NCBI GenBank assembly: GCA_963575745.1
Contig: CAUYUJ010000290.1
Coordinates: 1 to 64,000 of the forward strand
Direction of reading: 5' to 3'
Length of the DNA: 64,000 bases
From: Prorocentrum cordatum
Lineage: Eukaryota
Shown here: positions 1-49,494 of the stretch, one piece after another
Layout: every line of letters starts with the position of its first letter
How positions within the stretch are numbered: position 1 is the first letter of the stretch
Notes under the pieces: model-generated
Databases searched by the model: none
Seen by the model: only the letters and a program-made list of their open reading frames with translations
What the model was told of the DNA's origin: nothing
Translations under genes and position numbers: made by a program

Positions 1-36
1 GTAGTAGTAGTAGTAGTAGTAGTCGTAGTAGTAGTC

Positions 37-97
<61 letters not shown>

Positions 98-212
98 CAG
101 TAGTAGTAGTAGTAGTAGCAGTAGTAGTCGTAGTAGTAGTAGTAGCAGTAGTTGTCGTCGTAGTAATTGTAGTAGCAACAATGCTAAGAGTGGTTTTCAC
201 AGAAGTAGTAGT

Positions 213-256
<44 letters not shown>

Positions 257-316
257 CGTAGTCGTAGTAGTAGTAGTAGTAGTAGTAGCAGCAGTAGCAG
301 TAGCAGTAGCAGTATC

Positions 317-369
<53 letters not shown>

Positions 370-31500: not shown

Positions 31501-31637
31501 GGCAGAATCGACAGCCGCAGCAGCAGCATCATGAGATCGCGGTGGAGGAGGAGACGGACGGCGACGGGGGCGACGAGGGGGGGGAAAAGGAGAATGAGGG
31601 GGGGGGCGAGAGGGAATGTGGAGACGGAGGGGGGGTG

Positions 31638-32355
<718 letters not shown>

Positions 32356-33346
32356 GGGGGGGGGGGGGCGCGAGGAGGGCGATGGCGAGGGGGGTGGGGG
32401 TGGGGGCGGCGGAGGAGGAGATGTGCGAGGAGAAGGCGCGCAGGAGGAAGGTTGGGGGGGGGGATGGGGGAGGGGGGGGGGGGGCCGGGGATGATTCGAC
32501 AGAGGAGGGGTAGGGATGAGAGAGCAGCCAGGGGATGAATTTGGATGCTGGCATAGACGATGATGCGGATGGTGATGAAGATAAGAACAATGATGATGTG
32601 AATCAGGACGGGGAGGGGCAGCGGGAACATATGGGGATGAGGAGGCAGACGTTGGGCGGAGGATGGGGCGGATGAGAAGGCGGAGGGGGGGGGGGGGGGG
32701 CGCGAGGAAAACGAGAAGGCGGATGGGGGGCGAGGAGGAGGATGGGGATGGGAATGAGGATGGCGAGGATGAGGGGGAGGGGGAAGATGAACCCCCCGGG
32801 GGCGGCGGCGACAGGCCGTCGATCGCTACAGGCCGAAGGCGGGGAAGCACGGGTTCGCAGTCGACGGGGCTGCCGTCCAGCAGGCGAACAACATTCGCAT
32901 GCAGATGATTGCCATGGAGGTCGAGGGCGCGTTCATCCACATCTTCGACGCGACGGCGGCAGAGGGCAGGCTGGGGCTCCGCGCCGAGTGCCAGGTCCAG
33001 AACGAGAAGATCGCCGGCGACGGCAAGGACGCGGAGATGGCGTCCTAGCTGGCGTCGCTCGTCCATGCGAAGCTGACCGAGCGCGAAGGACGCGCTGGTC
33101 TCCGAGTAGATGGAGGCCGCGAGCCTCGCGGCCCAGCGGCGCGACGTTGCGCGCCATGGTAGGAAAAATTGTATAGTCTGATTGGTTGTAGACTGCAGGT
33201 TAAGTGGGAGGGGGTGTGGGCTCAGGTAGCCATTTTGGCTCCGTAGCGTTCGGCTCTGGCCGACGCGCGGGTGTTCCAGGGGGCCGCGGGGCGGCCATGA
33301 CCACAGCCGTGCTAGTCTGCGGACTAGGTAGCGCGCCTGTGGTGCC

Positions 33347-34543
33347 ATGGCTGTGGGCTTCCTGGGGGCGCACCTGATGATCTTGGTTGCGGGCGGCGCT
33401 CTTACGGTCCAAGGGGCACTTGGCTGGCTGCCGTTCGGGCGCGGGGGACAGGAGGTCCCAGCGCCGACGCCGCCAGCCCTGCCCGGGCCGACAGCGCCGC
33501 CGGCAGGCGGTGGGGGGCGAGGCAAGGGGCGAGGACCGCCCGCCAAGCCCGCGCCTGCAGGGGGAAAGGGGCGAGGGCCGCAGGCCAAGCCCCCGGGGGC
33601 GCCGGGCGTCCCACCGCCGCCGCGGTCAGGGTCGACTACAACGACCACGACCGCGGGCATCGGGCGCGTAGGCGAGGGCGAGCCCACGGGCAGCCCAGCT
33701 ACGCCGGCATACGGAGGTAACAACGAGCCCACGGGCGCGCCTGGGCAGCCGTCCGCCCCGGGAAACCGGACGGGCGATGGTGAGCCTGACCTGCCGCGTG
33801 GGCTGGACGGGTATTGGGGGTGGAGTGGTTGGGTCCCGCACCTGCCCCATTGGTGGGCTGGCCGGAACGAACCCCCACCGCCGCCGCCGCCACCTACCCC
33901 GCCCCCGGAGGCGGGGCCGGGTCCCGGTTGGGGCTTCGCAGCCTGGGTCTTCGAGTTCGTGGGCTATGGAGCGTGGGTAAGCTCCCCCGACCACCCGGGC
34001 ACGATCCGCACGAGTGGCGGATGGATTGGATCCGCCGTCGACCGCCTGGGCGTTAAGATGCTTGGGTACTGGTGGGAGACCGCGGTCCTATGCTTTGCCC
34101 TAGGCATCTTCACGTTCGTGTTGGGTGCCCTGGCCTTCATCGTCAACACCGCAGCCCAGCCTATGCTGTGGGCAGCCGGGGGACTCCGCTGGGCGTGGTA
34201 CCAGATTACCCGGTGCTGCCAGCGACGCGGAGGCGATGGGCCCGGCGCCCATCTTCCCCCACCCCCTCCGACCCCCTTGCTGGTGCGCTGGCGCGGGCCG
34301 GGCTTGGGCGGCGTGGTGGAGACAGAGTTCTACACAAAGGGGGTCCGCGGCCGAGGGACCAATCGGGCGTACAACCACGTGCTGCTGCGTAAGCACGGGC
34401 AGGTGGCCCGCATCAGCTGCAACTTTGCGGACCGGTACCGATTGGACCGCCACGGGCTCAACATCAAGATCGGGCAGGTCCTGGGGTGCACCAGTCGCAA
34501 GTGGCGGCTGAACCTCGAGGAGACAGGGAATGTGCACCTATAG
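33347..34543 (+). CDS. YR element polyprotein part 1: N-terminal hydrophobic segment, Pro/Gly linker, TM helices
   Basis: 398-aa ORF with YWWETAVLCFALGIFTFVLGALAFIV. It appears to continue into the next frame at about 34540 (NVHL / RAVEC). Confidence 0.7.
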   Translation: MAVGFLGAHLMILVAGGALTVQGALGWLPFGRGGQEVPAPTPPALPGPTAPPAGGGGRGKGRGPPAKPAPAGGKGRGPQAKPPGAPGVPPPPRSGSTTTTTTAGIGRVGEGEPTGSPATPAYGGNNEPTGAPGQPSAPGNRTGDGEPDLPRGLDGYWGWSGWVPHLPHWWAGRNEPPPPPPPPTPPPEAGPGPGWGFAAWVFEFVGYGAWVSSPDHPGTIRTSGGWIGSAVDRLGVKMLGYWWETAVLCFALGIFTFVLGALAFIVNTAAQPMLWAAGGLRWAWYQITRCCQRRGGDGPGAHLPPPPPTPLLVRWRGPGLGGVVETEFYTKGVRGRGTNRAYNHVLLRKHGQVARISCNFADRYRLDRHGLNIKIGQVLGCTSRKWRLNLEETGNVHL

Positions 34544-37500
34544 GTCGTGCTGTCGAGTGCGCCTCCTGTCCAGTGGCGCATCCCATGCGCGTCGACCAGT
34601 ACGCGGCCATTGACCACACACAGATCGTGGACTTGGCTGAGCACGGAAGGGCCACGGCCTGCCGGGCAGTCGGCGTGGGGCTCCGGAAGGTATTCGGGGT
34701 CGTCAAGTGGCTGCTTTGCTCACCCTGGTCGGTTCTCGGATGGCTGTGCCGGGGCCGGCCGGAGCCCCGCTACATCGCCGACGCCACGGGCTATCGCCGC
34801 CTGGACATCGACTCGGAGAGCGAGGTGGAGGCGGAGGAGCGCCCCTGCCAAGCCGCACAAGTTGGGGCGCAGCTCGCGGGTGGCGCACGCCCCCTCCAGC
34901 CGGAGGGGTGCGGCGACCGAGGGATGCAGGAGGCTACTGTCTTGCTGCAGGAGGACGCGGAGGTGTCGGACGTTCCCCGGCCGGGGCATTGTCTCAATGC
35001 ACAGGTGCACCTCTGCGCCCATCATGCGCAGAAGTATCGGTCTACCCTGATCGGCCGCAAGTGCAGCCTCCCCACTTGTCTCCGCATGGCGAAGGGTAGC
35101 TGCGGGGGGGCCCCGATGTGCGGGGAACATCTCCGACGGGACGAGGGTCGCACCGCGCGCGTCGAGGCGACGGTCCAACCTGGGATCCTCGGGGGCCTGC
35201 GCCGCCGCATGCGGGCGCGGGCTCCAAGCCCCGCCAGGGCGCGCGATTGGACCGCGCACGCTGCCGATGGGGTTGGCATAGCGCCCGGGCCGGTCTACCC
35301 CCCGCCTCTACCTCCCCCCGCTGCACCGCCACCGCCCGCCGTGGCCCCATCTATCGATGTGGAGCCCACGGGGGCGCAGGCCCTAACCTCTGGGCCGCAG
35401 CCGCGTCGCACACGCTCCGCGGAAGCAAGGGCCAGCGGACGCTCACGGTCTGCCGACCGCGGGGCCCCGGGCGATCGGATCGCCCACCACGGGTGGCTTC
35501 AGGAGCCCCTACTCGTGAAGGTCTGCCCGATACTCCCGGGCGACCCTCGGGGAGCCGAGGAGGCGTACGGCGCGCCCCCGGCGAGTCCTTGGTTTATTCT
35601 ATTGGGGGAATGCGAGGGGCTCGACGTACGGGGCACTGGCGGGGACGCCAGACTTATCATCGGGACTAGCCTCGAGGGCGTCAGGGTGGAGGTCCCAGCC
35701 AGCGAGGTCGTACGGCACCCCCCTCCGCTGGAGGACGGGCGCTACCCGATAGATTGGATCAATCGGCTGCTGTACGAGGTCCCCCAAGGGGCTCGGGAAG
35801 TGGGGTTGCGTGTCATCGCCCACCACATCCCGCAGGATCTGCTGGCGATGTTACGCCAGGAGCAGTGGGGCGGTGTGGACGTGGAAAGCGCGAGCGGCTG
35901 GAGGCGGCGCTACCTGACGAACACGGAGCGCCAGCAGCTGCAGCACGACCCGGTGCGCACGCTCGGCCACCATCGGCGGGGCGGCGCGCAGGGGGCGCCG
36001 CCTGCGCCCGGGATGGAGGGCCTGCCCCGTCCCGCCCCCGTGGCGGCACCATCGCGCTTAGCGGCGGCCGCCGCCGGCGTGAGCGAGGATGCTGAGGAAC
36101 CCGACCCACTCGAAATGTTCATGGATTCCTTGCGAGCCGAGGATCTCAAAGGACGGGGGGGCCAAGCGGCGGCCCTCAGTGCATTAGGTATGGCCGCGGA
36201 CCTGCTCGGGGTTCCACTTGATCAGGCGGAGCGGCAGCTGCGGCGGAGGGTCGCACAGGTGGCAGCGGCGGGCCCACTGGGGTCCGACCTAGAGCGCGCC
36301 CTCGCGGATTTGGAGGATGCGCAGCTGGAAGCGCGCGCGCGGGAGCGTGCTGCGGCCGCCGACAAGGTTCCCCTGCAGGGGAGCCTCTCACGTGAGGGGT
36401 CGCGGAGTCGCTCGGCGCGGGGACGGGATCCCAGCCCGAAGCAGGGACCCCGACGCGAGCTCTTCGGTGCCATGCCCCCCATCCAACCCACGGGCCCACG
36501 ACGGGGCTTGCTGGGTGATCGGGACCTGCTGGCACGCGATGGACGCGGGGGGGCCGCTCGTGGGGCCAATCCGCTCCTCGACGGGGCCTCGGTCCTTGGC
36601 CACCTCACTGGCCAGACGCCCCACGGGGGCGGCCTGGGTGGGGAGCGAGCTGGGGGCCCAGACGACGCCGGGGCGGCGGGCGCCCTGGGCGGGCTTACAG
36701 TCGAGGCCGAAGCCCAGATCATCGAGCGCCTGGATCGCCAGAACCGCCTCGCTGAACGCCACGTCCTCGCCGCCGAGCGGCAGGCGCGGGCCACCGAGGG
36801 CGACAAGAAGGCCCGGGGCACCAGGGCAGGGATCGGTCGGGACGAGGAACTTGATCTTTACATAGCCCGGGGATGCAACACCTTCGTGGTTGAGGCCTGC
36901 GAGGGGATCACGGGGAAGGACTTGTTCGACTCACTCAAGCGCATGTGTGCGCACTCCAAGAGCACGCTCAAGACGATCGGGTTTCCCTGCCTGGTTACCA
37001 ACCGTGTGGCACACGGCTACGCGGCGCTCGCCTTCGGGACGGGCCCTCACGACCTGGCGGTGGACGACTGCGTCCCCGCGCGTGACGAGGACTTCGATGG
37101 CTATCGGCTCCCTGTGGACGACAAGCTGGAGCCCCGCCAACGGCCCGCCACCCACATGGCGACCTGGTTCAAGAGGGCCCGGTGCGAGATCCAGATGTTC
37201 GAGTCCATCATAGGGGTCGCACACGGGGCGGAGCGTCGGCGGTCGTTAGGGTTCTTGGAGGCGGCCTTCGAGAGGGACCCATCGGAGTTCCCAGACCATT
37301 GGGTCAAGGATCTGTGGGAAGAGCTCCGAAGCACCTGGGTCGAGGAGTTACGGGAGCTGAGGCGCGGCTCTGCCGAGAGCTCGACACCGAGAACCCGAGG
37401 AGGGAGGACATCAAGTACATCCTACTCATGCCGGAGAACGGCTACGATTTGCCCCGAACGTTCGACCTCGGGGACCCGAACGCCTACTACCAGCAGGTGG

Positions 37501-37551
37501 TCGTGCCCCGGCGCAAGGCCGCACTCACGCGCCTCCTCAATGGGCAGCTGA
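34486..37551 (+). CDS. YR element polyprotein part 2: Cys-rich and gag-like region (frameshift at about 37365)
   Basis: 1021-aa ORF with HLCAHH...CSLPTC...CGEH. Ends WEELRSTWVEELRELRR, then continues as LCRELD in the next frame. Confidence 0.7.
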   Translation: MHQSQVAAEPRGDRECAPIGRAVECASCPVAHPMRVDQYAAIDHTQIVDLAEHGRATACRAVGVGLRKVFGVVKWLLCSPWSVLGWLCRGRPEPRYIADATGYRRLDIDSESEVEAEERPCQAAQVGAQLAGGARPLQPEGCGDRGMQEATVLLQEDAEVSDVPRPGHCLNAQVHLCAHHAQKYRSTLIGRKCSLPTCLRMAKGSCGGAPMCGEHLRRDEGRTARVEATVQPGILGGLRRRMRARAPSPARARDWTAHAADGVGIAPGPVYPPPLPPPAAPPPPAVAPSIDVEPTGAQALTSGPQPRRTRSAEARASGRSRSADRGAPGDRIAHHGWLQEPLLVKVCPILPGDPRGAEEAYGAPPASPWFILLGECEGLDVRGTGGDARLIIGTSLEGVRVEVPASEVVRHPPPLEDGRYPIDWINRLLYEVPQGAREVGLRVIAHHIPQDLLAMLRQEQWGGVDVESASGWRRRYLTNTERQQLQHDPVRTLGHHRRGGAQGAPPAPGMEGLPRPAPVAAPSRLAAAAAGVSEDAEEPDPLEMFMDSLRAEDLKGRGGQAAALSALGMAADLLGVPLDQAERQLRRRVAQVAAAGPLGSDLERALADLEDAQLEARARERAAAADKVPLQGSLSREGSRSRSARGRDPSPKQGPRRELFGAMPPIQPTGPRRGLLGDRDLLARDGRGGAARGANPLLDGASVLGHLTGQTPHGGGLGGERAGGPDDAGAAGALGGLTVEAEAQIIERLDRQNRLAERHVLAAERQARATEGDKKARGTRAGIGRDEELDLYIARGCNTFVVEACEGITGKDLFDSLKRMCAHSKSTLKTIGFPCLVTNRVAHGYAALAFGTGPHDLAVDDCVPARDEDFDGYRLPVDDKLEPRQRPATHMATWFKRARCEIQMFESIIGVAHGAERRRSLGFLEAAFERDPSEFPDHWVKDLWEELRSTWVEELRELRRGSAESSTPRTRGGRTSSTSYSCRRTATICPERSTSGTRTPTTSRWSCPGARPHSRASSMGS

Positions 37552-40500
37552 ACGCCCACCTCACGAAGCGACCGCCCAAAGCGGGAGGGAGCGAGGAAAT
37601 GGGCGATCCCCGGCCCACGGCGCAGGGGGATGACAGGCCCAAGGCGGGGGCTGGGCCCCAGCCGAAGGCGGGGCCCAAGGCGGGCACCGGGGCCCCAGCG
37701 GGGACAGCCCCCAAGAGGGCGTACCCAGCGGGCAAGGAACTAACACGCCCGGAGCGGACGCGATCCGTGGCGCATGCGCCCCGCAATAAAGACAACGTCC
37801 CTATCTGCTGGGGGGCCACCACGCACATGGGCTGCTCGCGGAAGGCTTGCGATTGCCCTAACTCCCATGACCCCATCAAGTCAACGCGCGGATTGGACTA
37901 CTCGGTAGTCATGCAGCTCACGAGGCGCGGGGGGCTCCTTGGGACGCCCCGGATCGATCCCAAGCAGGTGGATGGGATGATTGCGCAGCTGCGCTCGCAA
38001 GCCAAGGCAGCCGAGGCCGAGAAGGTTGGCGAGGACACTTCCCCACCTGCTCCCCCTGACTCCCAGAAGGAAAAGGGCCGGGGCCGTGGCAGCGGCTCGC
38101 GAGCAGCGGGCGACCCGGGCCCGGGGCAGGCCCCGGACGACTACACCGCGCTCCAGCTTACCGCGATGGAATCTGACCTCCGGGAAGCGGTTAAGGGCCC
38201 CGACTTCGGATGGCTCGAAGACCACGACCGCCCGCGCGCGGCGGCCACTTGGGACGCCCAGCCCGCGGGTGATGGGCCGGAGCTTCGCCTCAAGTTCATG
38301 CAGGAGCTCGAAGCCGAGGGCGTCTTCGCACCTCTGAAGGGGGCCAGCGAGTACTTGCAGAGCCACGTGCGCGGGCGCGTCTTGGGGGCGCGCCTGCGCG
38401 GGGAGCGGCTTACTCTGGAGCGAGCCCTCGAGGAAGCCGTGGACCGAGGCCATCGGGGTCTCAGCAGCGAGGCAGCCGACCTGCATGAGGCGCTTAGCTG
38501 CGCCGCAGGATACGTCACCGAGGGCGGGGCCGAGGTTGGCCCGGTTGCGTGGGACCCCGGCGGGCTGATAGGCCGCGGGTCCTATACCTTCTGGGACGGG
38601 GACACCCGCATCCAGTGGGACTTCATCGACTATCGGGACCGCCTCGGCCCTACAGAGGAGATGGGCCAGGCGATGGGCCTGGAGGTGGGCGACACCGAGG
38701 AGCGGCAGTGCCTGCTACTGCACGTAGCTGCGGGGGTGCTCCTGCTACGCGCGGGCGAGGGCACAGGTGAGCCCAGCCCGGACGCGGTGCAGCAGTTGGC
38801 CGCGACGTATCGCCATGCACTATGGGAGGAGGCCCATGAGGCCCTGCGTGCCCTGGGCGACTCCCCGCCGTGGATCACGGCCCTGGAGGCCGATGTCCGC
38901 TCCTACGTCCACGATGCGGTGCACCCGCACCACGACAAGGACTATCGCTGCCTGGCAGCATGCCCCGTCGCCGACCTCGACGCCGTCACGCTCCAGGTGC
39001 ACCGTGTCAACGGCAGTGGGCGCCTATGCGTGGACCACCTAATGGGAACGGGTGTCGGCGCGGAGGATCACGTAATTCCGCTCCTGATCTGGCGTGGCCA
39101 TATGCGCGCCTTGCGCCCGCGCTCCCACGCGGAGGCGGCGGCCCTAGGCCAGCGCTGGGGGCACGCAGGACGCCTGTCCCGCGAGATCGCAAGTGTCGGC
39201 TGGCGCGAGATGCTCGATGAAGGCCCGGACGTTGAACCCACCGTCCCGGGCAAGAGCGCGCCCTGCACCCACTGCAAGGCAGCGGAAGGTCGGGCGGGCC
39301 GCGCAGTGGGACGCGCGCCAGCCTCGTTCGGGGAACATCCAGCCGACGTCCAGGCACGCCTCCTGGAGGCGAACGCGATGCCAATTCGACACGACCCCGC
39401 GTTCGCGTACGGTTTGATCGCCCAGGAGGTGTACGCCGGTTCGGGAAATTGGTCGGCCGCGCTTCGCGCCGAGGGCATCCGGGTGCTGGAGCCGATCGAA
39501 TATTACGACGACCCCCTCCGAGAATCCGGCCCACGGCCGGATCATGACACCCTCGACCCAGCGGTCCGCGCGCGCCTACAGGAGGCCGCACGGACCCCCA
39601 TGGGCCCCGACGTGGCCAACGTTTGGTGCTGGGGTACCCCGTGTGGCTCGTACACCGACCTCGGGCTCATGACCCAGCCGGGCGGGACCCCGCAGGGCAC
39701 CCGCACGTGGGAGCACCCCGAGGGGGATGGCTCCAAAGAGTTCGAGCGCGTGGGTAACAGCCACACACAGTTCACGTGCGACACCTGCCGCATCCTACAC
39801 GACGCTGGCAAGGAGTTTCTCATCGAGTCCTCCTGCCCCTCGGGCCGCTACCCCAAGATTTGGGACCAGGCCCCGATGCACGAGCTGCGTCGAGCGACGG
39901 GGGCCATGATCGTCCCGATCCACATGTGCGCCTGGGGTAAGGCCCCGTCCGACGCGCCAGAGAGCCGCTATCGCAAGGGCAGCTGGTGGCTCGTCAGCCC
40001 CCGGCTGTATCTGCACGCTCTGTTGTTGGCGCGACGTTGCCCCCGTGACCACCACCACGTCGAGCTGAAGGATCACGTGCCGGGCTCGGGCATTAAGCGC
40101 ACCAAGGAGGCGCAGGTTTGGGCCCCCCGCCTTTGCGCCGCGTGGGCAAAGGTGTTGAAAGGGGCCTATCACCGCTGGTCGGTGAGCCAACTGCGTCGGC
40201 AGTTGGCGCCTATATGGGAGGATGGCCCGGGGGCGTCCCCCAAAATCGCCCGGGCGGAGGCGCCCGGGCGCCTGCAGGGCGTCGACTTCACTGGAATCGA
40301 GCGCCTGCAGGCCTCAGGGGACGGCTCAAAATGCGGTAGGCTTAGCCCAGCCATGCACCGAGCATTGGCGGGGCTTCCTAAGCCCCCATTGGGCAAGGCA
40401 CAGGGGGAGGTGAGTGCGGGCAAGACTCGACCCCCTTGCGAGGATCCGGCCAGAGATATCGCGGAGGACCTCGACGGGTGCAGCCCGGCGGAGCTGGCCA

Positions 40501-41474
40501 CGGTCTACCTGACCTTCTGCGCGGAGCACCCTGAGTATGACCCCGAAGCCATGCGGACCCTGGTAGGGCTGGGGGATCAGCTCCTCCAGCGGACGGGGTC
40601 CCTGAAGGAAGCGGCCGCGCTGCTTAGGCGCGCGCGCCACGAGCGCCTAGGCAACCCCCTTCGGGGTGTCCTGGGGGACAAGGTGCGACGGTGTTTAAGC
40701 CGAGAGCACTTCGAGTACGTCCGGGAGCTAGCGGAAGGGGGAGCCTCCGCGCGGCGGGGCGCGCCGCGGAGGCGCGAGCGAGCCCAGCCGTGCCCCAGCG
40801 TGCGAGCCCACATCGACGAGGCCTACCAGAAGGTATGGGCGGATGTGACCTGGGGGATCGTCCTGGTGGCGTCCCAGGCGGCAGAGGGTTTTCTAACGGA
40901 GCTGGTTGAAGCCCCCCTGGGGAGGGTACCGAAGCAGCTACCGGACAGAACCTTATCGTCCGAAGGGCGTATGATCCATGCGATGCTCTCGGCCAACGCC
41001 GCCACACACAAGCGCGACCACCCGCCTGCCGTCCAGCCACGCCATCGGCAAGTGGCGAGGACGGCGGTATGGCATCGCGCGCGCCACCCCGGAGCGCGCC
41101 TCCTCTGCGCCAAGCGGGACGTCTCGCGGGCCTTCAAGTGGTTGGACATCGCCCCGGCGGACGTCGGGGACTTTGGCACCTCGTTACCGGGGGCCCACGC
41201 TGGCATCGAGGGGGACGTCAGAGTCGTTTACCTAGCCATGGTGTTCGGGTGGACGGGAGCCCCAGGCAATTACATGATGCTCGCCCTGGCGGCGAGGGAG
41301 CTCCACGAGAGCTATCGGCCTGGGGAGCCGCACTGGCACGACACCACCCACTTCCACTCGGAGTGGCTCATGGATGACCCTGTGGTGGTGGAGCCCGACA
41401 TTGGGGTCCGCCGTGGATGGCCTGCGACGCATTGGATGCCTCCATACGTGAGGTGTTTGGGTCCGAAGCAGTGA
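37182..41474 (+). CDS. YR element polyprotein part 3: CCCH finger, OTU-like protease, C5 cytosine methyltransferase, reverse transcriptase (frameshift at about 41412)
   Basis: ICWGATTHMGCSRKACDCPNSH; QCLLLHVAA...LLIWRGHM; QEVYAGSG, WGTPCGSY, FLIESS, HMCAWG..YRKG; KRDVSRAF, MVFGWTGAPG, WLMDD. Confidence 0.85.
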   Translation: MRDPDVRVHHRGRTRGGASAVVRVLGGGLREGPIGVPRPLGQGSVGRAPKHLGRGVTGAEARLCRELDTENPRREDIKYILLMPENGYDLPRTFDLGDPNAYYQQVVVPRRKAALTRLLNGQLNAHLTKRPPKAGGSEEMGDPRPTAQGDDRPKAGAGPQPKAGPKAGTGAPAGTAPKRAYPAGKELTRPERTRSVAHAPRNKDNVPICWGATTHMGCSRKACDCPNSHDPIKSTRGLDYSVVMQLTRRGGLLGTPRIDPKQVDGMIAQLRSQAKAAEAEKVGEDTSPPAPPDSQKEKGRGRGSGSRAAGDPGPGQAPDDYTALQLTAMESDLREAVKGPDFGWLEDHDRPRAAATWDAQPAGDGPELRLKFMQELEAEGVFAPLKGASEYLQSHVRGRVLGARLRGERLTLERALEEAVDRGHRGLSSEAADLHEALSCAAGYVTEGGAEVGPVAWDPGGLIGRGSYTFWDGDTRIQWDFIDYRDRLGPTEEMGQAMGLEVGDTEERQCLLLHVAAGVLLLRAGEGTGEPSPDAVQQLAATYRHALWEEAHEALRALGDSPPWITALEADVRSYVHDAVHPHHDKDYRCLAACPVADLDAVTLQVHRVNGSGRLCVDHLMGTGVGAEDHVIPLLIWRGHMRALRPRSHAEAAALGQRWGHAGRLSREIASVGWREMLDEGPDVEPTVPGKSAPCTHCKAAEGRAGRAVGRAPASFGEHPADVQARLLEANAMPIRHDPAFAYGLIAQEVYAGSGNWSAALRAEGIRVLEPIEYYDDPLRESGPRPDHDTLDPAVRARLQEAARTPMGPDVANVWCWGTPCGSYTDLGLMTQPGGTPQGTRTWEHPEGDGSKEFERVGNSHTQFTCDTCRILHDAGKEFLIESSCPSGRYPKIWDQAPMHELRRATGAMIVPIHMCAWGKAPSDAPESRYRKGSWWLVSPRLYLHALLLARRCPRDHHHVELKDHVPGSGIKRTKEAQVWAPRLCAAWAKVLKGAYHRWSVSQLRRQLAPIWEDGPGASPKIARAEAPGRLQGVDFTGIERLQASGDGSKCGRLSPAMHRALAGLPKPPLGKAQGEVSAGKTRPPCEDPARDIAEDLDGCSPAELATVYLTFCAEHPEYDPEAMRTLVGLGDQLLQRTGSLKEAAALLRRARHERLGNPLRGVLGDKVRRCLSREHFEYVRELAEGGASARRGAPRRRERAQPCPSVRAHIDEAYQKVWADVTWGIVLVASQAAEGFLTELVEAPLGRVPKQLPDRTLSSEGRMIHAMLSANAATHKRDHPPAVQPRHRQVARTAVWHRARHPGARLLCAKRDVSRAFKWLDIAPADVGDFGTSLPGAHAGIEGDVRVVYLAMVFGWTGAPGNYMMLALAARELHESYRPGEPHWHDTTHFHSEWLMDDPVVVEPDIGVRRGWPATHWMPPYVRCLGPKQ

Positions 41475-44400
41475 ACGTCAGCAAGAGGGACGCCGAGGGG
41501 GAGCCTTCCACCACGCAGATTATCTGGGGGCTCAGTATGGACTTCGAGCGCGAGCGAGTTGGACTCCCGGAGCCCAAGGCCATGAAGATGCGCTTCCTAC
41601 TGGCGGAGCCGGAGCTGAGCTTCGGCTGCCGCATGGTCCGGCTGCGAACCGCGAGGGAGCTAAGTGGGCTCGGCCAGTTCTGCGCCTGCGCAGCTCCAGC
41701 CCTGAGCCTGGAGCTCCCAGCGGTCCACCGGATGCTGTCGGGTGACCCAGGTCAGGCCTACGTCCATCCGCCGGGCGACCCCGAGATGGTAGAGGCTGCG
41801 TGGGACGATTGGCACCAGACCCTGGATTGGCTTCGCGTCTGCTTTGAGATGCCGGTCGAGGGTAACTTCGAGACCTCCTTCGAGGGCTTGCTAGGCCTTC
41901 GCGAGGCCCTCGCACTCCCGGGGGCGCTCGGCAAGCTGCGCTGGCTGGGAGGCGATGCCACCCTGGATCGGATCGGTGCGCTGGACTGGTCCTCGCGCGA
42001 GTACATCGTGGCGGAGGCGGCTCCCTATCTGGAGACGCTCCGCTCCGCCCCTGGGGTCACTTGGCAGGGGGAGGGGGAGGTCATCGCGGTGGTCGAACTC
42101 CTCTGCCTGATAGCCTTGGCGGCCGAGAAGGGCCCGGACTGGTTCCAGCTGCTATTGCCGTACGTCACTGACAACAGCAATGTCAGCCGCTGGCTGCGAC
42201 GCCGCCGGGCACGGAACGCGGTGGCGCGCCACCTGCTTCGAGTCCTGGCCATGCTGGAGCTACGGTACAAGTTCCGGGTCCTGGACGGGCTTTACTTACG
42301 GACTTACCACAACGAGCTGGCCGACTTCATTACTCGTGCCACGGTGGAGGAGGTACGCCAGCGGATGGCGGAGGCCGGATGGACCGAGCTGTCGCCGGCA
42401 GCACCGTGGGGCGAGCTGGTGGAGGAGGCCGCCCAGCGCGAGCTGCGGATGCCAGGAGACGACGGGCCCTGGCGCGCGGCTGCACTCCAAGTCAAAGGAG
42501 CCCGGGAGGCCCTACCACGCTACGCCCCCCTGCAGGTCGAGGGGGCGCGGCTGCTGGAGGTGGGAACCGCGTGGCCCCCCTTTGGGGAGGCATGGGAGAG
42601 CCTCGGTGGGTCGGCGCTGCTAGCGCCGTGGGATGTCGGTGACCGATGGGACCCGGACGACGGGGACCACCCCAAGGACCCCACTGGGGCCCCACGGACC
42701 CGCTGGCTGTGCGTGTCACTATCGGAGGACCCCGGTGGACGCGAAGCGACGGGCCTGGAGCGGCTACTGATCACCACTCGGCCACTGGCCGTGCTGCTCG
42801 ACGCCCCCGTCAACTACGCTGCAGTGCGACTAGGGGCGCGCTTACGGCGCCTCGGCTATGTGGCACTCTCCCCAGAGACGCGCCTACTGTGCACACACTT
42901 CGGCGACGTCACGGCACGCGCGCGGGCGGTCCAGGTTTGGGGTTGCGGGGAACGGGTTCGGGCACCGAGCCCCGTACCCCCCCTGGGACAGCCCTGCGTG
43001 GAGCCACGCGGCCTCTGCCAGCTCTGGAAGGAGGCAGGGCGGCCACCGCTGGATGAGCTCCGCCTGGACCTCGACAACGGCACCTTGCTCGTGGACCCTC
43101 GGATCTCGACGACGGGGGATCGCATGATGCCCTGGCCGCGGGGCACATGGCAGCCCGCGGGAGGCGGGCGGGCCCAGCGCGTGGTGATTCATGATCCGCG
43201 CGGGCCCTGCCATACGGCACGGGCGAAGCCCGACCCGTTGAAGGGCTATGCGAACACCCTGATCCTGGAAGGGTCCGAGGGCGGCTGGACCGTGCGAGCC
43301 CTGCACCCGAAAGAAATCTGGTGCGCCCAGGGGGGCACGGCGGAGCTGTGGGATGCCTTGGGCCTTGGAGGTATGCCGATCGCCGAGCGCATGCGGCAGG
43401 CCGCTCGTGCACTCCCGCGTCGCACGGCCCGCTGGGTGCTCCAGTGGGCGGAGCGCCTGCTGAGGCAGGCCGTAGAGGCAGCGAGCGCAGGCGAGGCACC
43501 CGGGGCGCGCGCTGGCGTCGGGCCCGATCACGACCGACTCGCTAATGACGAGATGGTTAAGCTGTGGCTAAAGGCCTGGCTTCAGGCCCCCGATCGCCCA
43601 AGCGGGCCATTCGAGGCTGCGCTGGAGGCGGGGAAGACGACGGACGACGCCGCTCGGTTGGCGGACCAGCTCGACCCCCCTGCTACCGCGCGGTCCACCG
43701 CAGCAGGGGTGGACGGGGCAGGCGGGGAGCGGGTCGGGGCGGTGACCTTCGCTGTTCCGGAAGGCGCGGGCATGCCCAGGCCAAGCGCCATGGACGGCGT
43801 GGGCGGCGAGGCCCCCCCCCCGCGCAAGGCCCGTCGGCGTGCCCGCAGCGCCCCTGCTCCCGCGCTGGTGAAGCCCGCCGCCTGGCGGTACGCCGGCGGG
43901 GGCGCCCCGAAAGGGATTCAAGGTGAACTCACCGACCCCCGCGAGCTGGATGCGACCGCCACCGAGGCGATGTTGGCCAAGCTTGCCGAAGGGACGCGGG
44001 CCAATTACAGCGCCGGGTGGCGTAACTGGGTACTCTGGCGGAGGCTCCGAGGCCGGAGCCCATACCTGCAGGGGGAGACTCGGGACGCCCGCCTTACGGA
44101 TGAGGATGACCTCATCCGGTATGTCGTGTACCTGTACAAGGTGATGAAGAGGCGAGCCACGACCATCCGCCAGCGCCTGTTCGCCATTCGATATGCCCAC
44201 ACCCTGGCCGGGTTTGGGGATGTGACCTCCGATCGGCGCCGGCTCTGGACCACGATCGAGGGACTCCGCCGCTGGGACGGAAAGGCGAAACGGAAGCTGC
44301 CGGCCACGCCCCGGATGTTGCGCTGGCTCCGAGAGTACTTGTTCGCCCACGGGACGGCCACGCGCCGGGAGGCGACCATCCTATGGGCGGCGCTTATGAC

Positions 44401-47400
44401 GGGGTACTTCTTCATGCTCCGAGCGTCGGAGTATTTGGTCCAAGAGGACCGCTCCTGGAGTATGGGACGGGTGGTGCGTGGGCAGGACGTACAGGGGATG
44501 CGCGGAGGTACACCCAGCGCAAGGCTCAGCGACTGCGATGAGGTAGTACTGACGATCACGTCGTCCAAGACGGACCAGTTTAACGCAGGTTGCGTACGCA
44601 ACCATTACCGTTCGGGGGTGGAGTTGTGTGTCGTGGACGCACTCGCCGACCTCCAGAGGGAGCTGCCGGACCGGTTTGGACGAGGAACCGAGGCGGGGCT
44701 CCCCCTGTTCCGCCGGCCCGATGGCCACCCGATTATGCGGGAGGAGGTGCAGGGGCTCCTCCAACTCGCGGCTGCCGCCTGCGGCGTGGACGCAGGCCAG
44801 ATGGGATCCCACTCCCTGCGCATCGGGGGCGCGACGGCGTTGTACCACGCCTGTCGCGACCTGGAAGCGGTCAAGAGGTTCGGGAGGTGGTCCACGGACG
44901 CCTTCCACGGATACCTCTGGGAGGACCATCGGCGTCAGGCTCCATTCGCCCGAGGCATGGCGGAGGGCCACGCCTTATTGGCCCCGGACGCCCGCGGTGA
45001 CGACGGCGCCGCGGCCGGCGCCCGCCCCGACCAGTTGGCCGGGAGCGACCCGCCCCAGTTTGGGAGCGATCTGAGGCCCTCGGAACGCCCGGCCTGGGCG
45101 CCCGGGCGCCCCCCCTGGGCGCGCCCTTCGGCGCGAGCAGGGTCAACTACGGAGGGGGAAGGAGAGGAGGAATTGGTGAGATACGAGCCAGGGCGAGGAG
45201 TTAACGGGCGTGTGGGAAAGCAGCAGGCGGGTCCCACGGGTATTCAGGTCAGGGCGGGGGCTTCGCGTTGTGGGGGTATCCCGGTGGACCTCTCGCCCTC
45301 GACCCCCCTTTCGCTACCGCTCCCGATCGCCCCAGGCACGCCCACCTCCTCTTGGTCCTCTCATCCGCAGCCATCTCCCACTCCAGAGCGAGGCACGCGA
45401 GCAGCGCGCGCACCCCAGCCTCGCGCGCCAGCCGCGCCTTCGCCCCGCGCTCCGGCAGCGTGCATCATGGGATTCCTGGTGGGCCTGGTGGCCCCGGACC
45501 AGAGCAAGGCGCGTGGCCATGACTACAGCATCATGGCGGTGAACCCCCTCGGCGTCGTCGTCTCGGGGGCCGCGCTGTCGGACGAGCTCCGGAGTGCCGC
45601 CCACAACATCCTGTACACGGTGGTGAACGAGCTGGACAGCGAGGACCTCGTCGAGGTGGTCAACCACGACCACGAAGCAGCCCCGTGCATCGCGGCGGCT
45701 TGCTTGGCCGCGGGGGCGAGCGAGGACCACGGCCAGCTGGTGATCGTCGACGGCAAGCGGGGTGCGTGGGGGGTGGGCGCGGGGCCGAATATCAAGGTCC
45801 AGCGCCAGGCGGCCAAGCTGGCGCTCGCCTTGGCCCAGTTCCAGGGGCAGCCCATGCCGGAGCTCCGCGAGCTCTGCAAGCACAACAGGGGGCTGCTCGA
45901 CATGATGCGCACAGTGGACGCGGAGGCGGTCGTGGAGCTCACCGACGACGACGCCTCGAGCAGGGGCGAGGGGAGGTCGACCCCAGCCCCGGTCCTCGAG
46001 GCGGGAGAGGACGCGGTCACCGCGGCGCTGGCGCGTGCGGCCATCCAGGCTGCCGCGCGGCGCCAGAGCAAAGGCGCTCCAAAGGCGCGCCCGCGGCCCG
46101 CGCGGTCGCCGGGCCAGGAGCGCCTCGCCGAAGAGGTCCGCAAGCGCGAGAGGCGCCCTGCGCCCTTGCGCTCGCCCTCGCGCGCGAGGCGCCGCGATCG
46201 CGAGCGCGATGCGCCTCGCGATCGCGGGCGCAGGGGACAGGAGGAGGAGGCCGTCTTGAAACCCAAGACGGGCGGCGCCCCCCCGAAGGCCGACATCGTG
46301 AAGCGTGAGGCCGTCCTGAAGCCTAAGAGCGGGGGGGCGCCGCCGCGGTCCTTCGAGGTGAAGACCGAGGTGGAGGAGGCGGCGGCGCCAGGCGCGGGGG
46401 ACGGTCCGCCCCAGCGCCAGCCGCGCTCGAGGAGCCGCCGTAGGCGCAAGGAGGAGCAGCGCCAGGGCGCCCAGCAGCAGCCCAGTGACCAGCACGACGA
46501 GGGCGAGTCCATCATCCGCATCGAGCGGGTACCGCACCACGTCGATGCCGAGGTGGTCAGGCAGGTGGTCGTGCCCTTTGGGGTCGTCAAACACATCGCC
46601 TTCCTGTACGACCACCGCCACAAGCGGGAGCCGTGCGTGCTGGTGGAGTTCCAGCGCCGCGCTGACGCAAAGCGCGCGCGGGAGTGCATGAGGTCGAACT
46701 ATCGGTTCTACAAGACGGACCCGTGCACGGTGGTCACGGAGTGGGCGAGCCGGCCTCGCGGCCCTGACCCAGGCAGCGACGGGGAGGATGGCCCGACCAT
46801 CCAGCCGCCTGCCTGCCCGACGTGCGCACTCAAGATGCGCTGGAGCTCCTTTGACCCGGGAGACGGTTGGGGTTGCGAGATGTGCCCCGCGGGCGGAGCT
46901 AACAGCGGAGCCCTGCGGTGGCACTGTAAGGGGTGCGACGTGAGCTACTGCGAGGCTTGCCGCGTCGCCTTCGGCAAACCCAAGACGGTGGTGGAGAAGG
47001 CCCGGCGGAGCGGCCACACCGTGCGGGAGGCGCCGGGCCCCAGTGCCGGCCATGGAGAGCGCCCCAGCACGGGTGCCACGGGTGCGGGGGCTGAGGGGGA
47101 CCGCCCGCCGGGCGACCTCAGCTGGCCCAAGCGCGAGAGGTCGCCCAGCCGCAACCGGCCCAAGCGCGAGAGGTCGCCCAGCCGCAGTCTGGCGCGGGAC
47201 CCAGCGTGGGCGCGGCGCGGCGACACCCCTCCCGGCCGCACGCGGCGTAAGACCGGGAAGCACGCTGGGCAGCTTCGCGCTCCTCGCGGCGGCTGGTACG
47301 AGCAGGAGAAGAAGCGGCGGCGTGCTGCCGCCGCGGAGGCTGCCGCGGGCGAGGGTGGGATCCCAGCCTGGCGTGGCAAGGGCGCGGGCGACAAGGGCGG

Positions 47401-47665
47401 CAAGGGCGGCAAGGTCAAGGGCAAGCACTCCGGCAAGGCCGCCAAGGGCTCCAAGAGCGGCGGCAAGGGCGACAAGAGCGGCAAGGGCGGCCACTCCAAG
47501 GGCGACCAGGGCAGCCGCGGCCGGAGTGAGCGTGACTGGCCCAGCGCGGACGGTCGCGCGTCGAGGGGCGGCGATGGCGGCAGCCCCCGGGACCCCAGTG
47601 AGCGCGGCGGAGACCGCAGCGGAGACGAGAGCCGCGACCGCCAGGGGAACACGCCCTCCATCTAG
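41417..47665 (+). CDS. YR element polyprotein part 4: RT end, RNase H, degenerate second MTase, tyrosine recombinase, then dsRBD-like/RRM/Zn-finger/GK-rich cargo
   Basis: GGDAT...VVELL...VTDN...HNELADFITR (RNase H); VRALHPKEIWCAQG; FFMLRASEY, SKTDQ, SHSLRIGGAT, FGRWSTDAFHGY (YR). RRM at about 46505-46750 and CxxC clusters at about 46810-46960. Confidence 0.9.
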   Translation: MACDALDASIREVFGSEAVNVSKRDAEGEPSTTQIIWGLSMDFERERVGLPEPKAMKMRFLLAEPELSFGCRMVRLRTARELSGLGQFCACAAPALSLELPAVHRMLSGDPGQAYVHPPGDPEMVEAAWDDWHQTLDWLRVCFEMPVEGNFETSFEGLLGLREALALPGALGKLRWLGGDATLDRIGALDWSSREYIVAEAAPYLETLRSAPGVTWQGEGEVIAVVELLCLIALAAEKGPDWFQLLLPYVTDNSNVSRWLRRRRARNAVARHLLRVLAMLELRYKFRVLDGLYLRTYHNELADFITRATVEEVRQRMAEAGWTELSPAAPWGELVEEAAQRELRMPGDDGPWRAAALQVKGAREALPRYAPLQVEGARLLEVGTAWPPFGEAWESLGGSALLAPWDVGDRWDPDDGDHPKDPTGAPRTRWLCVSLSEDPGGREATGLERLLITTRPLAVLLDAPVNYAAVRLGARLRRLGYVALSPETRLLCTHFGDVTARARAVQVWGCGERVRAPSPVPPLGQPCVEPRGLCQLWKEAGRPPLDELRLDLDNGTLLVDPRISTTGDRMMPWPRGTWQPAGGGRAQRVVIHDPRGPCHTARAKPDPLKGYANTLILEGSEGGWTVRALHPKEIWCAQGGTAELWDALGLGGMPIAERMRQAARALPRRTARWVLQWAERLLRQAVEAASAGEAPGARAGVGPDHDRLANDEMVKLWLKAWLQAPDRPSGPFEAALEAGKTTDDAARLADQLDPPATARSTAAGVDGAGGERVGAVTFAVPEGAGMPRPSAMDGVGGEAPPPRKARRRARSAPAPALVKPAAWRYAGGGAPKGIQGELTDPRELDATATEAMLAKLAEGTRANYSAGWRNWVLWRRLRGRSPYLQGETRDARLTDEDDLIRYVVYLYKVMKRRATTIRQRLFAIRYAHTLAGFGDVTSDRRRLWTTIEGLRRWDGKAKRKLPATPRMLRWLREYLFAHGTATRREATILWAALMTGYFFMLRASEYLVQEDRSWSMGRVVRGQDVQGMRGGTPSARLSDCDEVVLTITSSKTDQFNAGCVRNHYRSGVELCVVDALADLQRELPDRFGRGTEAGLPLFRRPDGHPIMREEVQGLLQLAAAACGVDAGQMGSHSLRIGGATALYHACRDLEAVKRFGRWSTDAFHGYLWEDHRRQAPFARGMAEGHALLAPDARGDDGAAAGARPDQLAGSDPPQFGSDLRPSERPAWAPGRPPWARPSARAGSTTEGEGEEELVRYEPGRGVNGRVGKQQAGPTGIQVRAGASRCGGIPVDLSPSTPLSLPLPIAPGTPTSSWSSHPQPSPTPERGTRAARAPQPRAPAAPSPRAPAACIMGFLVGLVAPDQSKARGHDYSIMAVNPLGVVVSGAALSDELRSAAHNILYTVVNELDSEDLVEVVNHDHEAAPCIAAACLAAGASEDHGQLVIVDGKRGAWGVGAGPNIKVQRQAAKLALALAQFQGQPMPELRELCKHNRGLLDMMRTVDAEAVVELTDDDASSRGEGRSTPAPVLEAGEDAVTAALARAAIQAAARRQSKGAPKARPRPARSPGQERLAEEVRKRERRPAPLRSPSRARRRDRERDAPRDRGRRGQEEEAVLKPKTGGAPPKADIVKREAVLKPKSGGAPPRSFEVKTEVEEAAAPGAGDGPPQRQPRSRSRRRRKEEQRQGAQQQPSDQHDEGESIIRIERVPHHVDAEVVRQVVVPFGVVKHIAFLYDHRHKREPCVLVEFQRRADAKRARECMRSNYRFYKTDPCTVVTEWASRPRGPDPGSDGEDGPTIQPPACPTCALKMRWSSFDPGDGWGCEMCPAGGANSGALRWHCKGCDVSYCEACRVAFGKPKTVVEKARRSGHTVREAPGPSAGHGERPSTGATGAGAEGDRPPGDLSWPKRERSPSRNRPKRERSPSRSLARDPAWARRGDTPPGRTRRKTGKHAGQLRAPRGGWYEQEKKRRRAAAAEAAAGEGGIPAWRGKGAGDKGGKGGKVKGKHSGKAAKGSKSGGKGDKSGKGGHSKGDQGSRGRSERDWPSADGRASRGGDGGSPRDPSERGGDRSGDESRDRQGNTPSI

Positions 47666-47760
47666 GCGTGGAGCTCCCCCCCGTACCCCGACGCCAGCGC
47701 CCGCGGCATCGCGGGCGCGGGCTGAAGGCGGCGGCCTGTGAGTGAGCCGGCCCTCCTCTC

Positions 47761-47909
47761 AGCCTACCGTGCGCAGGTGGCGCCTGCGATCCTTGAGCCT
47801 ACGGTACGCAGGTGGCGCCTGCGATCTTGTTTCTTTTAGCCTACGGTACGCAGGTGGCGCCTGCGATCTTCTTTCTTTAGCCTACGGTACGCAGGTGGCG
47901 CCTGCGATC
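47761..47909 (+). repeat. Four 31-bp hairpin repeats in the YR element 3-prime region
   Basis: agcctacggtacgcaggtggcgcctgcgatc at 47761 (2 mismatches), 47796, 47838 and 47879. Confidence 0.92.
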
Positions 47910-49494
47910 CTCTCTCTTTGGAGGAGTTTAACGTTGCGCGCACGTCGCGTGCTTCCTGGACCCGGCCGTGCCGCGCGTCTTGCGCGCCGTGCGGTCGGGG
48001 CCACACTTGCGCTCTGCGCCCGGCGCCTCGTGCGCCGCCCCCTTTCGTTTCTTTTGCGCGCATCGCGCGCGCGCCGCGCCCGCGCTCTGGGTGCGCGGGC
48101 GCGGAAGGCCTCAAGGTTGCAGGCAAGTGGCCGCGCGCGCGAGGCTCTTGCAGCCTCTGGTTCCGCCCTCGCACTCGGGCGAGGCGTCCCCGCGCGCGCG
48201 GCTGCGTTTTCTTTTCTCATGGCCGAGCGGCCGCAGGCGTGCCAGAGCGCAGCGCGCGGGCCGTCAGGGCCCACGCGCTCGCGTTGAGCGTGGGGCCATC
48301 AGGGCCCACGCCCAGGCGGAGATGCGCGTCGCCACGCTGCCATGAAAATACCATCGCCCTGTCCTGGTCCCTCTCTCGTCCCCTCCTCTCCTCCTCTCCC
48401 TCCGTTGAGTGCACGCGTATCTCACTTAACTTGTATAGTCTGATTGGTTGTAGACTGCAGGTTAAGTGGGAGGGGGTGTGGGCTCAGGTAGCCATTTTGG
48501 GTCCGTAGCGTTCGGCTCTGGCCGACGCGCGGGTGCCCACCCACCCCGCTTTGCTCCCAGACGCCTGCGTCGGCCGAGCGGCCGCAGGCGTGCCAGAGCG
48601 CGAGCGCGCGGGCCGTCAGGGCCCACGCGCTCGCGTTGAGCGTGGGGCCATCAGGGCCCACGCCCAGGCGGAGATGCGCGTCGCCACGCTGCCATGAAAA
48701 TACCATCGCCCTGTCCTGGTCCCTCTCTCGTCCCCTCCTCTCCTCCTCTCCCTCCGTTGAGTGCACGCGTATCTCATTTAACCTGAAGAATTGGGTCGCG
48801 ATTGGGAGGTGTGGAGGGGGTGGGGGGATCTCACCACCTCCTCCTCCGCCTCCTACTCCCCCTCCTCGTCCTTCTCCTCTTCCGCCTCGTCCTCTTCCTC
48901 GTCCTCTTCCTCCTCTTCCGCCGCCTCCTTCTCCTCCTCCGCCCCCGCCCCGCCCCCCGCGCCCCCTCCTGCTCCTCCTCCTGGCCTATCTTTTGGTCGT
49001 CTTGTGGCCACCTTTTATTAGTCCGCGCGCATAGGCGGGGTGTCTTTTGCTATGCCCCCCCCCCTTCCCCCGGTTGCTCCTTGCCGGGCCTGCGAGCCGC
49101 GGCCCCTGGCCTAGGCCAGAGGAAAAAACAATTGGAAAACGGCGTGGCCTTGCCGTCCCTGGCCGCGCTCGCGGCGCCGTGGGCGGCGGAAACACGAAGG
49201 GCCATCGCGACCAGCAACGAGGGGGGGCGGGGGCGGAGGAGGAGGAGGAGGGGAAACAACAGGGCAACAGCAAAAAGGATACCTCCCCGAGGATGGGCTG
49301 GGGCCCCCCGGGCAGCGCGGGCCGCAGCGTCACGCGCGAGAGCGTGAACGGGCGTTCGCCTGAGGAGGAGGGGGAGGAGGAGGAGGAAGGGGGGGGGGAG
49401 CAGGAGGAAACGGAGGAGGAGGAGGAGGAGGATGGGGGGGGGGGAGGGGCGGGGGAGGAGGAGGAAAATACTATATATATACATGGAGAGAAAA

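Follow-up and report, generated by a model that had tools for sequence, protein, structure and literature searches.

Tyrosine-recombinase retrotransposons are described as elements with several open reading frames (ORFs) and without a protease. The described systems closest to the one reported here are SymbioDIRS-Dnmt3, which also comes from dinoflagellates, and the DIRS, PAT and Ngaro elements, and the main text on them gives features that our element shares, namely repeats in the order A-coding-B-A-B, a divergent reverse transcriptase (RT) missed by Pfam, a tyrosine recombinase (YR, putative in ours) and a methyltransferase-type domain in the pol region (a candidate in ours) (PMC5890265). 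We analysed 64,000 nucleotides of Prorocentrum cordatum DNA (contig CAUYUJ010000290.1 of assembly GCA_963575745.1, positions 1 to 64,000, forward strand; hereafter the window), which hold an element of this kind at 33166-48782 (+), ~15.6 kb long. Its family departs from the DIRS-order descriptions in having a single continuous frame and an OTU-fold protease domain. Elements of the SymbioDIRS type carry the recombinase in a separate ORF, whereas here it lies in one frame of ~4,770 codons together with the OTU module, and the main text of the SymbioDIRS paper has no mention of OTU, protease or peptidase (PMC5890265). Unlike that of SymbioDIRS-Dnmt3, the methyltransferase-like domain of our element has no match to Pfam DNA_methylase.

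OTU domains are already known in mobile elements and in viral polyproteins, and what appears to be new here is their place in a tyrosine-recombinase retrotransposon. Arterivirus PLP2 and tymovirus PRO resemble our case, as each is an OTU-fold domain in a large multi-enzyme polyprotein with no other obvious protease for the junctions concerned; as described for the enzymes of equine arteritis virus (EAV) and turnip yellow mosaic virus (TYMV), they process the polyprotein by cleavage behind small residues of the Gly type and act as deubiquitinases as well, and the active site of TYMV PRO is a Cys-His dyad that works without a third catalytic residue (PMC3968130, PMC5967125). They belong, however, to RNA viruses and are much smaller, while ours is a DNA-integrated protist retrotransposon whose polyprotein cleavage is putative. 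Ginger1 transposases and animal Helitrons and Helentrons also carry an OTU-type accessory domain, but these domains match Pfam PF02338 and are described on transposases or Rep/helicase proteins and not in a polyprotein, whereas ours escapes Pfam and is part of a retroelement polyprotein (PMC2836005, PMC4067079). Thiol proteases of the deubiquitinase (DUB) or SUMO type are fused to retroelement proteins in NeSL and Utopia long interspersed nuclear elements (LINEs), where they are Ulp1-like, and in a Chlamydomonas element, where the protease is Josephin-related; these belong to other protease families, and the elements are non-LTR with far smaller proteins (PMC4640811, PMC9977147). An OTU protease in the Chlamydomonas Dualen LINE was not confirmed, and the protease named in the figure of Chlamydomonas transposable elements is the Josephin-related one (PMC9977147). 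In the open-access main texts that we searched, no OTU domain was described in a tyrosine-recombinase retrotransposon, and the word OTU is absent from the main texts of a preprint on DAM-carrying retrotransposons (10.64898/2026.05.21.726589) and of a review on accessory domains (PMC6338049).

The initial annotation of the locus had proposed an OTU- or papain-like cysteine protease from a few short strings. Translation of 38400-39500 (+) contained all of them (QCLLLHVAA, LAATYRHAL, DYRCLAA, VTLQVHRV and IPLLIWRGHMRAL), with the Cys codon at 38709 and the His codon at 39099 as proposed. The conserved domain is wider than the 38690-39120 noted then. It measures ~316 amino acids (38313-39260), with a C-terminal extension reaching ~39260, and in the numbering of this domain the two residues are Cys133 and His263. 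The parts of the module are:

38313..38510 (+): N-terminal three-helix bundle, model residues 1-66 (AlphaFold2 helices 13-28, 35-45 and 48-62)
38514..39128 (+): OTU-fold core, model residues 68-272 (VIA-align, Foldseek)
38709..38711 (+): putative catalytic Cys in an E-x-x-Q-C motif, at the N-terminus of helix 133-147 (DSSP of the model)
38886..38948 (+): motif E-A-D-x-R-x3-H-D-x5-H-D-K-D-Y-R in the helical lobe, its residues kept in ~94-99% of covering homologues
39099..39101 (+): putative catalytic His in G-H-M-R, at the start of strand 263-268 (DSSP of the model)

AlphaFold2, run on an alignment of 50 sequences (A2), returned a model of the module with a predicted local distance difference test score (pLDDT) of 92.8 and a predicted template modelling score of 0.88. 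The model has the two-lobed alpha/beta OTU fold. Two N-terminal strands end at D106, helix 133-147 begins with Cys133, residues 156-216 form a helical lobe, and His263 opens strand 263-268 in a four-stranded sheet. The helices and strands guessed in the initial annotation all agree with this model: LAATYRHAL lies within helix 156-181, DYRCLAA overlaps helix 213-216, VTLQVHRV is strand 226-232 and IPLLIWRGHMRAL forms the hairpin of strands 254-260 and 263-268.

The claim of an OTU fold was borne out by structural comparison. When the model was ranked with VIA-align against 48,161 representative PDB chains, independently of Foldseek, ranks 1 to 28 were all OTU enzymes (Z 8.6-5.4). OTUD3 came first (Z 8.6, root-mean-square deviation 4.0 over 135 residues), followed by SnOTU (8.5), Cezanne (8.4) and A20 (8.1); the further OTU ranks held OTUD2, TRABID, nairovirus OTUs, VCPIP1, OTUD1, yeast Otu1 and Otu2, OTUB1, Wolbachia and Legionella OTUs and FAM105A (Z 6.2). 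A second ranking, made on the best 1000 chains of Foldseek, gave OTU enzymes in 50/50 rows and 86 chains at Z of at least 5. Among the matches that Foldseek itself listed against the PDB, 26 of 35 were OTU domains, the best being a rice OTUB-like domain (E 0.029, probability 0.80). In the viral library BFVD the best matches, all at E of at least 2.3e-3, included cyprinid herpesvirus ORF62, a pandoravirus OTU protein, an iridovirus ubiquitin thioesterase, a nairovirus L fragment and chrysovirus proteases. The TYMV proteinase was also among the structural matches (Z 4.6), and the module is closer in predicted structure to cellular OTUs than to this enzyme. The N-terminal bundle resembles only generic helical bundles, as seen in the lower-ranked rows of VIA-align.

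In the model the putative catalytic Cys and His are at the canonical secondary-structure positions. The structural alignments pair module residues 84..269 with OTUB1 45..271, 82..271 with OTUB2 4..232 and 83..273 with OTULIN 78..349. Cys133 and His263 are thus predicted to stand at the same offsets as the catalytic residues of these enzymes (C91/H265 in OTUB1, C51/H224 in OTUB2 and C129/H339 in OTULIN). With the cellular OTUs (OTUB1/2, OTULIN, OTUD1-3 and A20/Cezanne/TRABID) the module shares the alpha/beta fold over ~135-175 aligned residues (Z 7.4-8.7), but it has no detectable sequence-profile similarity to them. The canonical Cys motif is D-G-x-C, whereas here it is E-x-x-Q-C, and the module has in addition an invariant H-D...H-D-K-D-Y-R block, the N-terminal three-helix bundle and its retrotransposon polyprotein setting.

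Conservation among homologues had been named as a check on the Cys and His, and both residues passed it. A word-indexed search found two long relatives, P0002 (E 5.8e-25) and P0003 (E 5.9e-19), which both retain QC(L/M)xLHV, HD(K/R)D(Y/F) and GHMR. With 38313-39260 as query, phmmer found 423 cluster representatives (clusters at 50% identity) at E<=1e-3, 209 at E<=1e-10 and 20 at E<=1e-30. Cys133 is present in 49/50 sequences of alignment A2 and His263 in 41/42 that cover it. We then realigned 151 stored representatives to the hidden Markov model of A2 and counted, for each column, the sequences covering it: Cys133 was kept in 129/130, His263 in 102/106, and both together in 84/89. The counts for other conserved columns were D106 (110/114), E129 (128/130), Q132 (128/130), R167 (134/138), H200 (136/140), D201 (139/140), H207 (132/138), D210 (131/137) and R212 (130/137). 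Canonical OTUs have an Asp or Asn two residues after the catalytic His, and A20-type enzymes have an upstream Asp. D106, upstream of the Cys, is a candidate catalytic Asp as in A20-type enzymes. We know of no counterpart of the E-A-D...Y-R block in OTU enzymes; it could supply a third catalytic residue, bind a metal or bind the substrate.

Two of the homologues have public names, P0011 from Polarella glacialis and P0101 from Symbiodinium sp. CCMP2592, and the family is therefore dinoflagellate-associated. In long homologues the OTU module always lies between the gag-like/zinc-finger region and the RT region. The domain is a constant part of this dinoflagellate family, whose members are giant tyrosine-recombinase retrotransposons of ~15.6 kb.

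Some homologues carry other labels and domains. P0002 and P0003 bear the precomputed Pfam label PF26692.1, and our own Pfam scan at E<=0.1 gave no family in either. Downstream of the OTU module, P0101 (residues 1962-2125, E 3.2e-11) and P0124 (1740-1845, E 1.2e-15) have an RNA 2'-phosphotransferase domain of the Tpt1/KptA family (PF01885), which is absent from the window copy. The C-terminus of P0101 is a glycosyl hydrolase 28 domain, and this is probably a fused gene model.

The host had been taken for a tyrosine-recombinase retrotransposon, and this is supported by the RT fold, a YR motif with a weak Pfam match and the A-coding-B-A-B repeats. Since two repeat pairs frame the coding region, we set the element bounds at 33166-48782. 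The features on which this assignment stands, and the domains next to the OTU module, are:

33166..33273 (+): repeat A1 (108 nt), with which the element begins at its 5' end; its partner A2 at 48428-48535 is 98% identical
37806..37868 (+): CCCH-type zinc-finger motif (CW...C...C...SH), its C, W, C, C and H columns invariant or nearly so in alignments A1 and A5
39400..40349 (+): candidate C5-methyltransferase-like domain, motif order YAGSG, EPIE, TPC, ESS (alignment A3)
40350..42000 (+): reverse transcriptase, motif A at 41118 and LMDD at 41367-41378, cut by frame break 3
44705..44917 (+): putative catalytic region of the tyrosine recombinase, HSLRIGGATALY ... RFGRWSTDAFHGYL, Pfam Phage_integrase
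48221..48782 (+): 3' repeat block, B1 48221-48430, A2 48428-48535 and B2 48572-48782

B1 and B2 are 99% identical over 211 nt, and the order A-coding-B-A-B is the split-direct-repeat arrangement of tyrosine-recombinase retrotransposons. The RT was missed by the Pfam RVT models. An AlphaFold2 model of 40350-41411, made on a 17-sequence alignment (pLDDT 78.2), matched HIV-1 or MMLV RT in all of the top 50 Foldseek rows (best E 4.7e-4, probability 1.00). The recombinase region matches Phage_integrase at E 3.3e-4 and 20.9 bits, under the 27.1-bit cutoff, with a weak match to XerC; the motifs H-x-L-R and R-W-x-S-x5-Y are seen in its sequence, and homologue P0072 has the same Phage_integrase domain at its C-terminus (25 bits). 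Pfam scans of the frames of the element gave no DDE integrase. Just after the OTU module, the methyltransferase-like domain shows the motif order of C5 cytosine methyltransferases (F/YAGxG, EPIE, PCxSY, ESS). Its sole profile match is a weak one to the DNA methyltransferase phrog_363, in residues 482-572 of homologue P0006 (E 0.016), and neither Pfam nor NCBIfam gave any match. A 10-protein profile of the whole polyprotein, searched against PDB sequences, found neither the RT nor the methyltransferase.

We also asked if the element makes one polyprotein, which the initial annotation had put at about 4700 residues. This held for the family and not for the window copy. The module sits in a stop-free frame at 37086-41474, one of four long frames on the + strand which span 33.3-47.7 kb and occupy three different reading frames. 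Together they form the following polyprotein frame with its breaks:

33347..47665 (+): polyprotein frame of ~4,770 codons, ATG at 33347 and stop at 47665
34541..34546 (+): frame break 1, frame 2 to frame 1, which creates a TAG stop
37364..37371 (+): frame break 2, frame 1 to frame 3, without a slippery heptamer
41409..41411 (+): frame break 3, frame 3 to frame 2, within the RT just past motif C (LMDD)

The segments of the window copy (33347-34540, 34546-37368, 37371-41410 and 41411-47662) contain no in-frame stop. In tblastn with the 26 stored homologues of at least 900 amino acids, proteins crossed all three frame changes without loss of residues, and P0011 (3270 amino acids) is colinear with 33941-44791. 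We compared 34300-41600 with Logan contigs of four public runs (X1, X4, X5 and X7) from four different studies. At 34542 all covering contigs lacked two letters in 4/4 runs. After 37364 one extra letter was found in 4/4 runs, at full depth in X1 and X4, in 205/373 in X5 and in 34/90 in X7; after 41409/41410 one extra letter was again found in 4/4 runs, at full depth in X1 and in part of the depth in the other three. Homologues and run contigs read through, and therefore related copies are continuous and the window copy has three small frame-breaking indels. A single frame of ~4,770 codons thus appears to hold for the family, while the window copy is disabled by three indels of 1-2 nt. Break 1 may instead be an assembly error, as its state is found in none of the four runs. 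Among 40 substitutions relative to the contigs, a selected subset of 120, 26 were synonymous and 14 were not, which fits copies descended from elements under purifying selection.

Two other explanations of the breaks were rejected. Programmed -1 frameshifting does not account for them, as no slippery heptamer is present, one break falls inside the RT catalytic domain and other copies read through. Introns were ruled out by the size of the discontinuities, only 1-2 nt.

Next, we looked at where such a polyprotein might be cut. The KAG motifs which the initial annotation had listed as candidate cleavage sites (four at 37578-37685) and the RAG motifs (39291, 43508 and 45134) are present as described. 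Their claimed clustering in linkers fared less well, with no overall enrichment, and what stood was the positional conservation of those at 37578, 39291 and 43508. The KAG cluster itself is mostly a low-complexity PKAG repeat. A better mimic of the ubiquitin tail, LLRRGG at 37923-37934, was absent from that annotation. The candidate sites are:

37578..37589 (+): site 1, KAGG, linker between the gag-like region and the zinc finger, family form GG(K/R)AG
37923..37934 (+): site 2, RRGG of VxMQLLRRGG after the CCCH zinc finger, ubiquitin-tail-like
38097..38114 (+): site 3, SRAAGD, end of the low-complexity linker before the OTU module, family form (K/R)AG(G/E/W)
39264..39299 (+): site 4, CxxC knuckle CTHC and then GRAG, directly after the OTU module
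43508..43516 (+): site 5, RAG, linker before the recombinase region

At site 1 an aligned (A/G)G is found in 21/21 covering sequences (23 aligned) and GG(K/R)A(A)G in about half; relatives align GG(K/R)A(A)G or xAG(G/D) with the KAGG of the window, in a linker that is otherwise variable. The end of ubiquitin is R-G-G, and at site 2 the GG is kept in 19/21 aligned sequences. A [RK][RK]GG motif occurs 200-330 residues before the Cys in 22/29 representatives reaching that far, compared with 1/51 and 1/26 in control windows. At site 3, [KR]A{1,2}G lies 180-300 residues before the Cys in 23/31 sequences, and within -225..-185 in 20/31 by manual count, with a background of 0.28 per 100 amino acids. 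For site 4, a CxxC is found 30-110 residues past the His in 57/63 sequences, with [KR]xG within the next 12 residues in 48/63, typically as (R/K)(K/R)(A/T/S)G. The RAG of site 5 lines up by eye with KAGG at residue 2892 of P0011 and is followed by the same ALEAW-type helix; in the same linker P0072 has two KAGG and P0101 has none. As far as the alignments tell, short basic motifs ending in Gly keep their place in the linkers that border the zinc-finger module and the OTU module, and they are candidate cleavage sites.

These observations suggest a mechanism. Intact relatives have a single frame with the order gag-like region, CCCH zinc finger, OTU module, methyltransferase-like domain, RT and YR. 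The OTU-fold domain would be an active thiol protease and the processing enzyme of the element itself. Its cuts, made both in cis and in trans, would fall behind ubiquitin-tail mimics ending in Gly, (K/R)-(A/G/T/S)-G including LLRRGG. Such mimics sit in the linkers on either side of the zinc-finger module and of the OTU module, and again ahead of the recombinase. In this mode of working the domain would resemble PLP2 of arteriviruses and PRO of tymoviruses. It probably deubiquitinates as well, although self-processing does not require this. Self-processing by the OTU-fold domain is plausible but unproven, and we put its probability, with or without deubiquitination, at about 0.5. The more specific picture is held more tentatively: a retrotransposon expressed like a positive-strand RNA virus, with a polyprotein of ~4,770 residues matured by its OTU protease at ubiquitin-tail mimics and the same site possibly deubiquitinating.

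Several results weigh against self-processing or against the fold beneath it. Foldseek gave no match at E<=1e-3, either against the PDB or against BFVD, and VIA-align warns that best Z values of 7-8 are common for unmatched models. The fold assignment thus draws its weight from three rankings falling on one superfamily and from the placement of the Cys and His. None of the 50 aligned members matched any OTU Pfam model even at E<=10, which puts the module outside Pfam PF02338 (OTU) and PF10275 (Peptidase_C65 otubain); the A2 profile found no OTU among 10 weak matches in PDB sequences, and single-sequence phmmer against PDB sequences returned noise only, without an OTU. The Asp or Asn two positions after His263 is missing, the motif being H-M-R with Arg at position 265 in 74/105. 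The (K/R)(A/V)G motif occurs 17 times in the window copy compared with 12.9 +/- 3.5 expected, a count reached in 153/1000 shuffles, and across homologues the same motif is only ~1.3-fold over the composition estimate, with Arg, Ala and Gly the commonest residues here. GG is likewise not enriched in the window copy (57 compared with 61.6 +/- 6.9). LLRRGG lies in a strongly conserved, probably folded stretch and not in an obviously free linker. DUB-type domains also occur in transposons without a polyprotein, and a ubiquitin-directed role is therefore favoured by this comparison.

Such a role is the main alternative, which we consider possible, if somewhat unlikely. The domain would be an active OTU deubiquitinase or ubiquitin-like-modifier hydrolase acting on host or element proteins only, for example shielding element proteins from ubiquitin-dependent degradation or tuning DNA-repair signalling, and any polyprotein processing would be left to host enzymes. 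Every structural neighbour is a deubiquitinase, and OTU, Ulp1 and Josephin-type domains are described in Ginger1, Helitron, NeSL/Utopia and Chlamydomonas elements that have no giant polyprotein (PMC2836005, PMC4640811, PMC9977147). The nairovirus OTU, as described, plays no part in processing (PMC3968130), and the number of cleavage motifs in the window copy is at chance level. A DUB-only role would leave unexplained, however, the (K/R)xG and RRGG motifs that keep their positions on either side of the module although the linkers around them vary. It would also leave a multi-enzyme product of ~4,770 residues without any identified protease, as Pfam scans of the frame found no aspartic or other protease anywhere. 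We regard it as improbable that the OTU-like fold is no protease at all, with C133, H200, D201, H207, D210 and H263 having a metal-binding, structural or nucleic-acid-related part in a scaffold or binding module. The unusual invariant E-A-D...Y-R block would suit this explanation, as would the lack of the canonical third residue after the His, the failure of sequence profiles to recognise the family as OTU and the inactive OTU relative FAM105A among the structural matches. On the other hand, a Cys at a helix N-terminus and a His at a strand start, with the offsets of OTUB1, OTUB2 and OTULIN, is the catalytic arrangement; the two residues occur together as expected of a dyad, and TYMV PRO is active without a third residue. 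Finally, the helices and strands could be a chance arrangement in a GC-rich frame with a meaningless Cys and His, or the segment a captured host fragment foreign to the element. The best Z of 8.6-8.7 is barely above the typical best Z of unmatched models and the Foldseek E-values are weak. Nevertheless, the three rankings converge on one superfamily (28/28, 50/50 and 26/35 of the rows listed), the near-invariant Cys and His recur among the 423 homologous cluster representatives, and the place between the gag-like/zinc-finger and RT regions is constant in long homologues. This last explanation is close to refuted.

The module had no match in Pfam, PHROGs or NCBIfam, and the ESM Atlas search gave no usable match. 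No Pfam or PDB sequence profile detects it as an OTU, and it therefore represents a new, very divergent OTU-fold family. With its 423 representatives at 50% identity this family is large, and it goes unrecognised as OTU in the profile libraries now in use. That matters for annotating dinoflagellate genomes, in which elements of this type abound and frequently appear among the predictions as "unnamed protein products". With its giant single frame and its OTU-fold protease, the family is the opposite of the tyrosine-recombinase retrotransposons described so far. If self-processing is true, a virus-like expression strategy arose independently in a retrotransposon, with the protease class that otherwise processes arterivirus and tymovirus polyproteins. 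The element would then be the first of the tyrosine-recombinase retroelements to process itself, and the first retroelement with an OTU protease replacing the retroviral aspartic protease. The conserved linker motifs are concrete, testable candidate cleavage sites.

Past the recombinase the frame runs for ~900 codons more (44960-47665, +), with low-complexity stretches rich in Arg, Gly and Lys and an RRM:

46514..46696 (+): RRM in the C-terminal extension past the recombinase, Pfam RRM_1 at 22.4 bits (cutoff 20.7 bits)

The same tail holds a weak B-box-like zinc motif (46874-46966). The tail may be lineage-specific, because neither P0011 nor P0072, both long homologues, extends past the recombinase. 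Just 3' of the polyprotein stop codon, 47754-47919 (+) holds four tandem units of ~41 nt, each with GCAGG-TGGCG-CCTGC, a possible stem of 5 bp with a loop of 5 nt. At the other end of the polyprotein, upstream of the gag-like region, 34064-34144 (+) encodes a transmembrane-like hydrophobic stretch of ~27 residues, GYWWETAVLCFALGIFTFVLGALAFIV. The element is flanked on both sides by long GA/TC and TG/CA microsatellite arrays and G-rich tracts at 28175-28630, 31600-32400 and 49390-50600.

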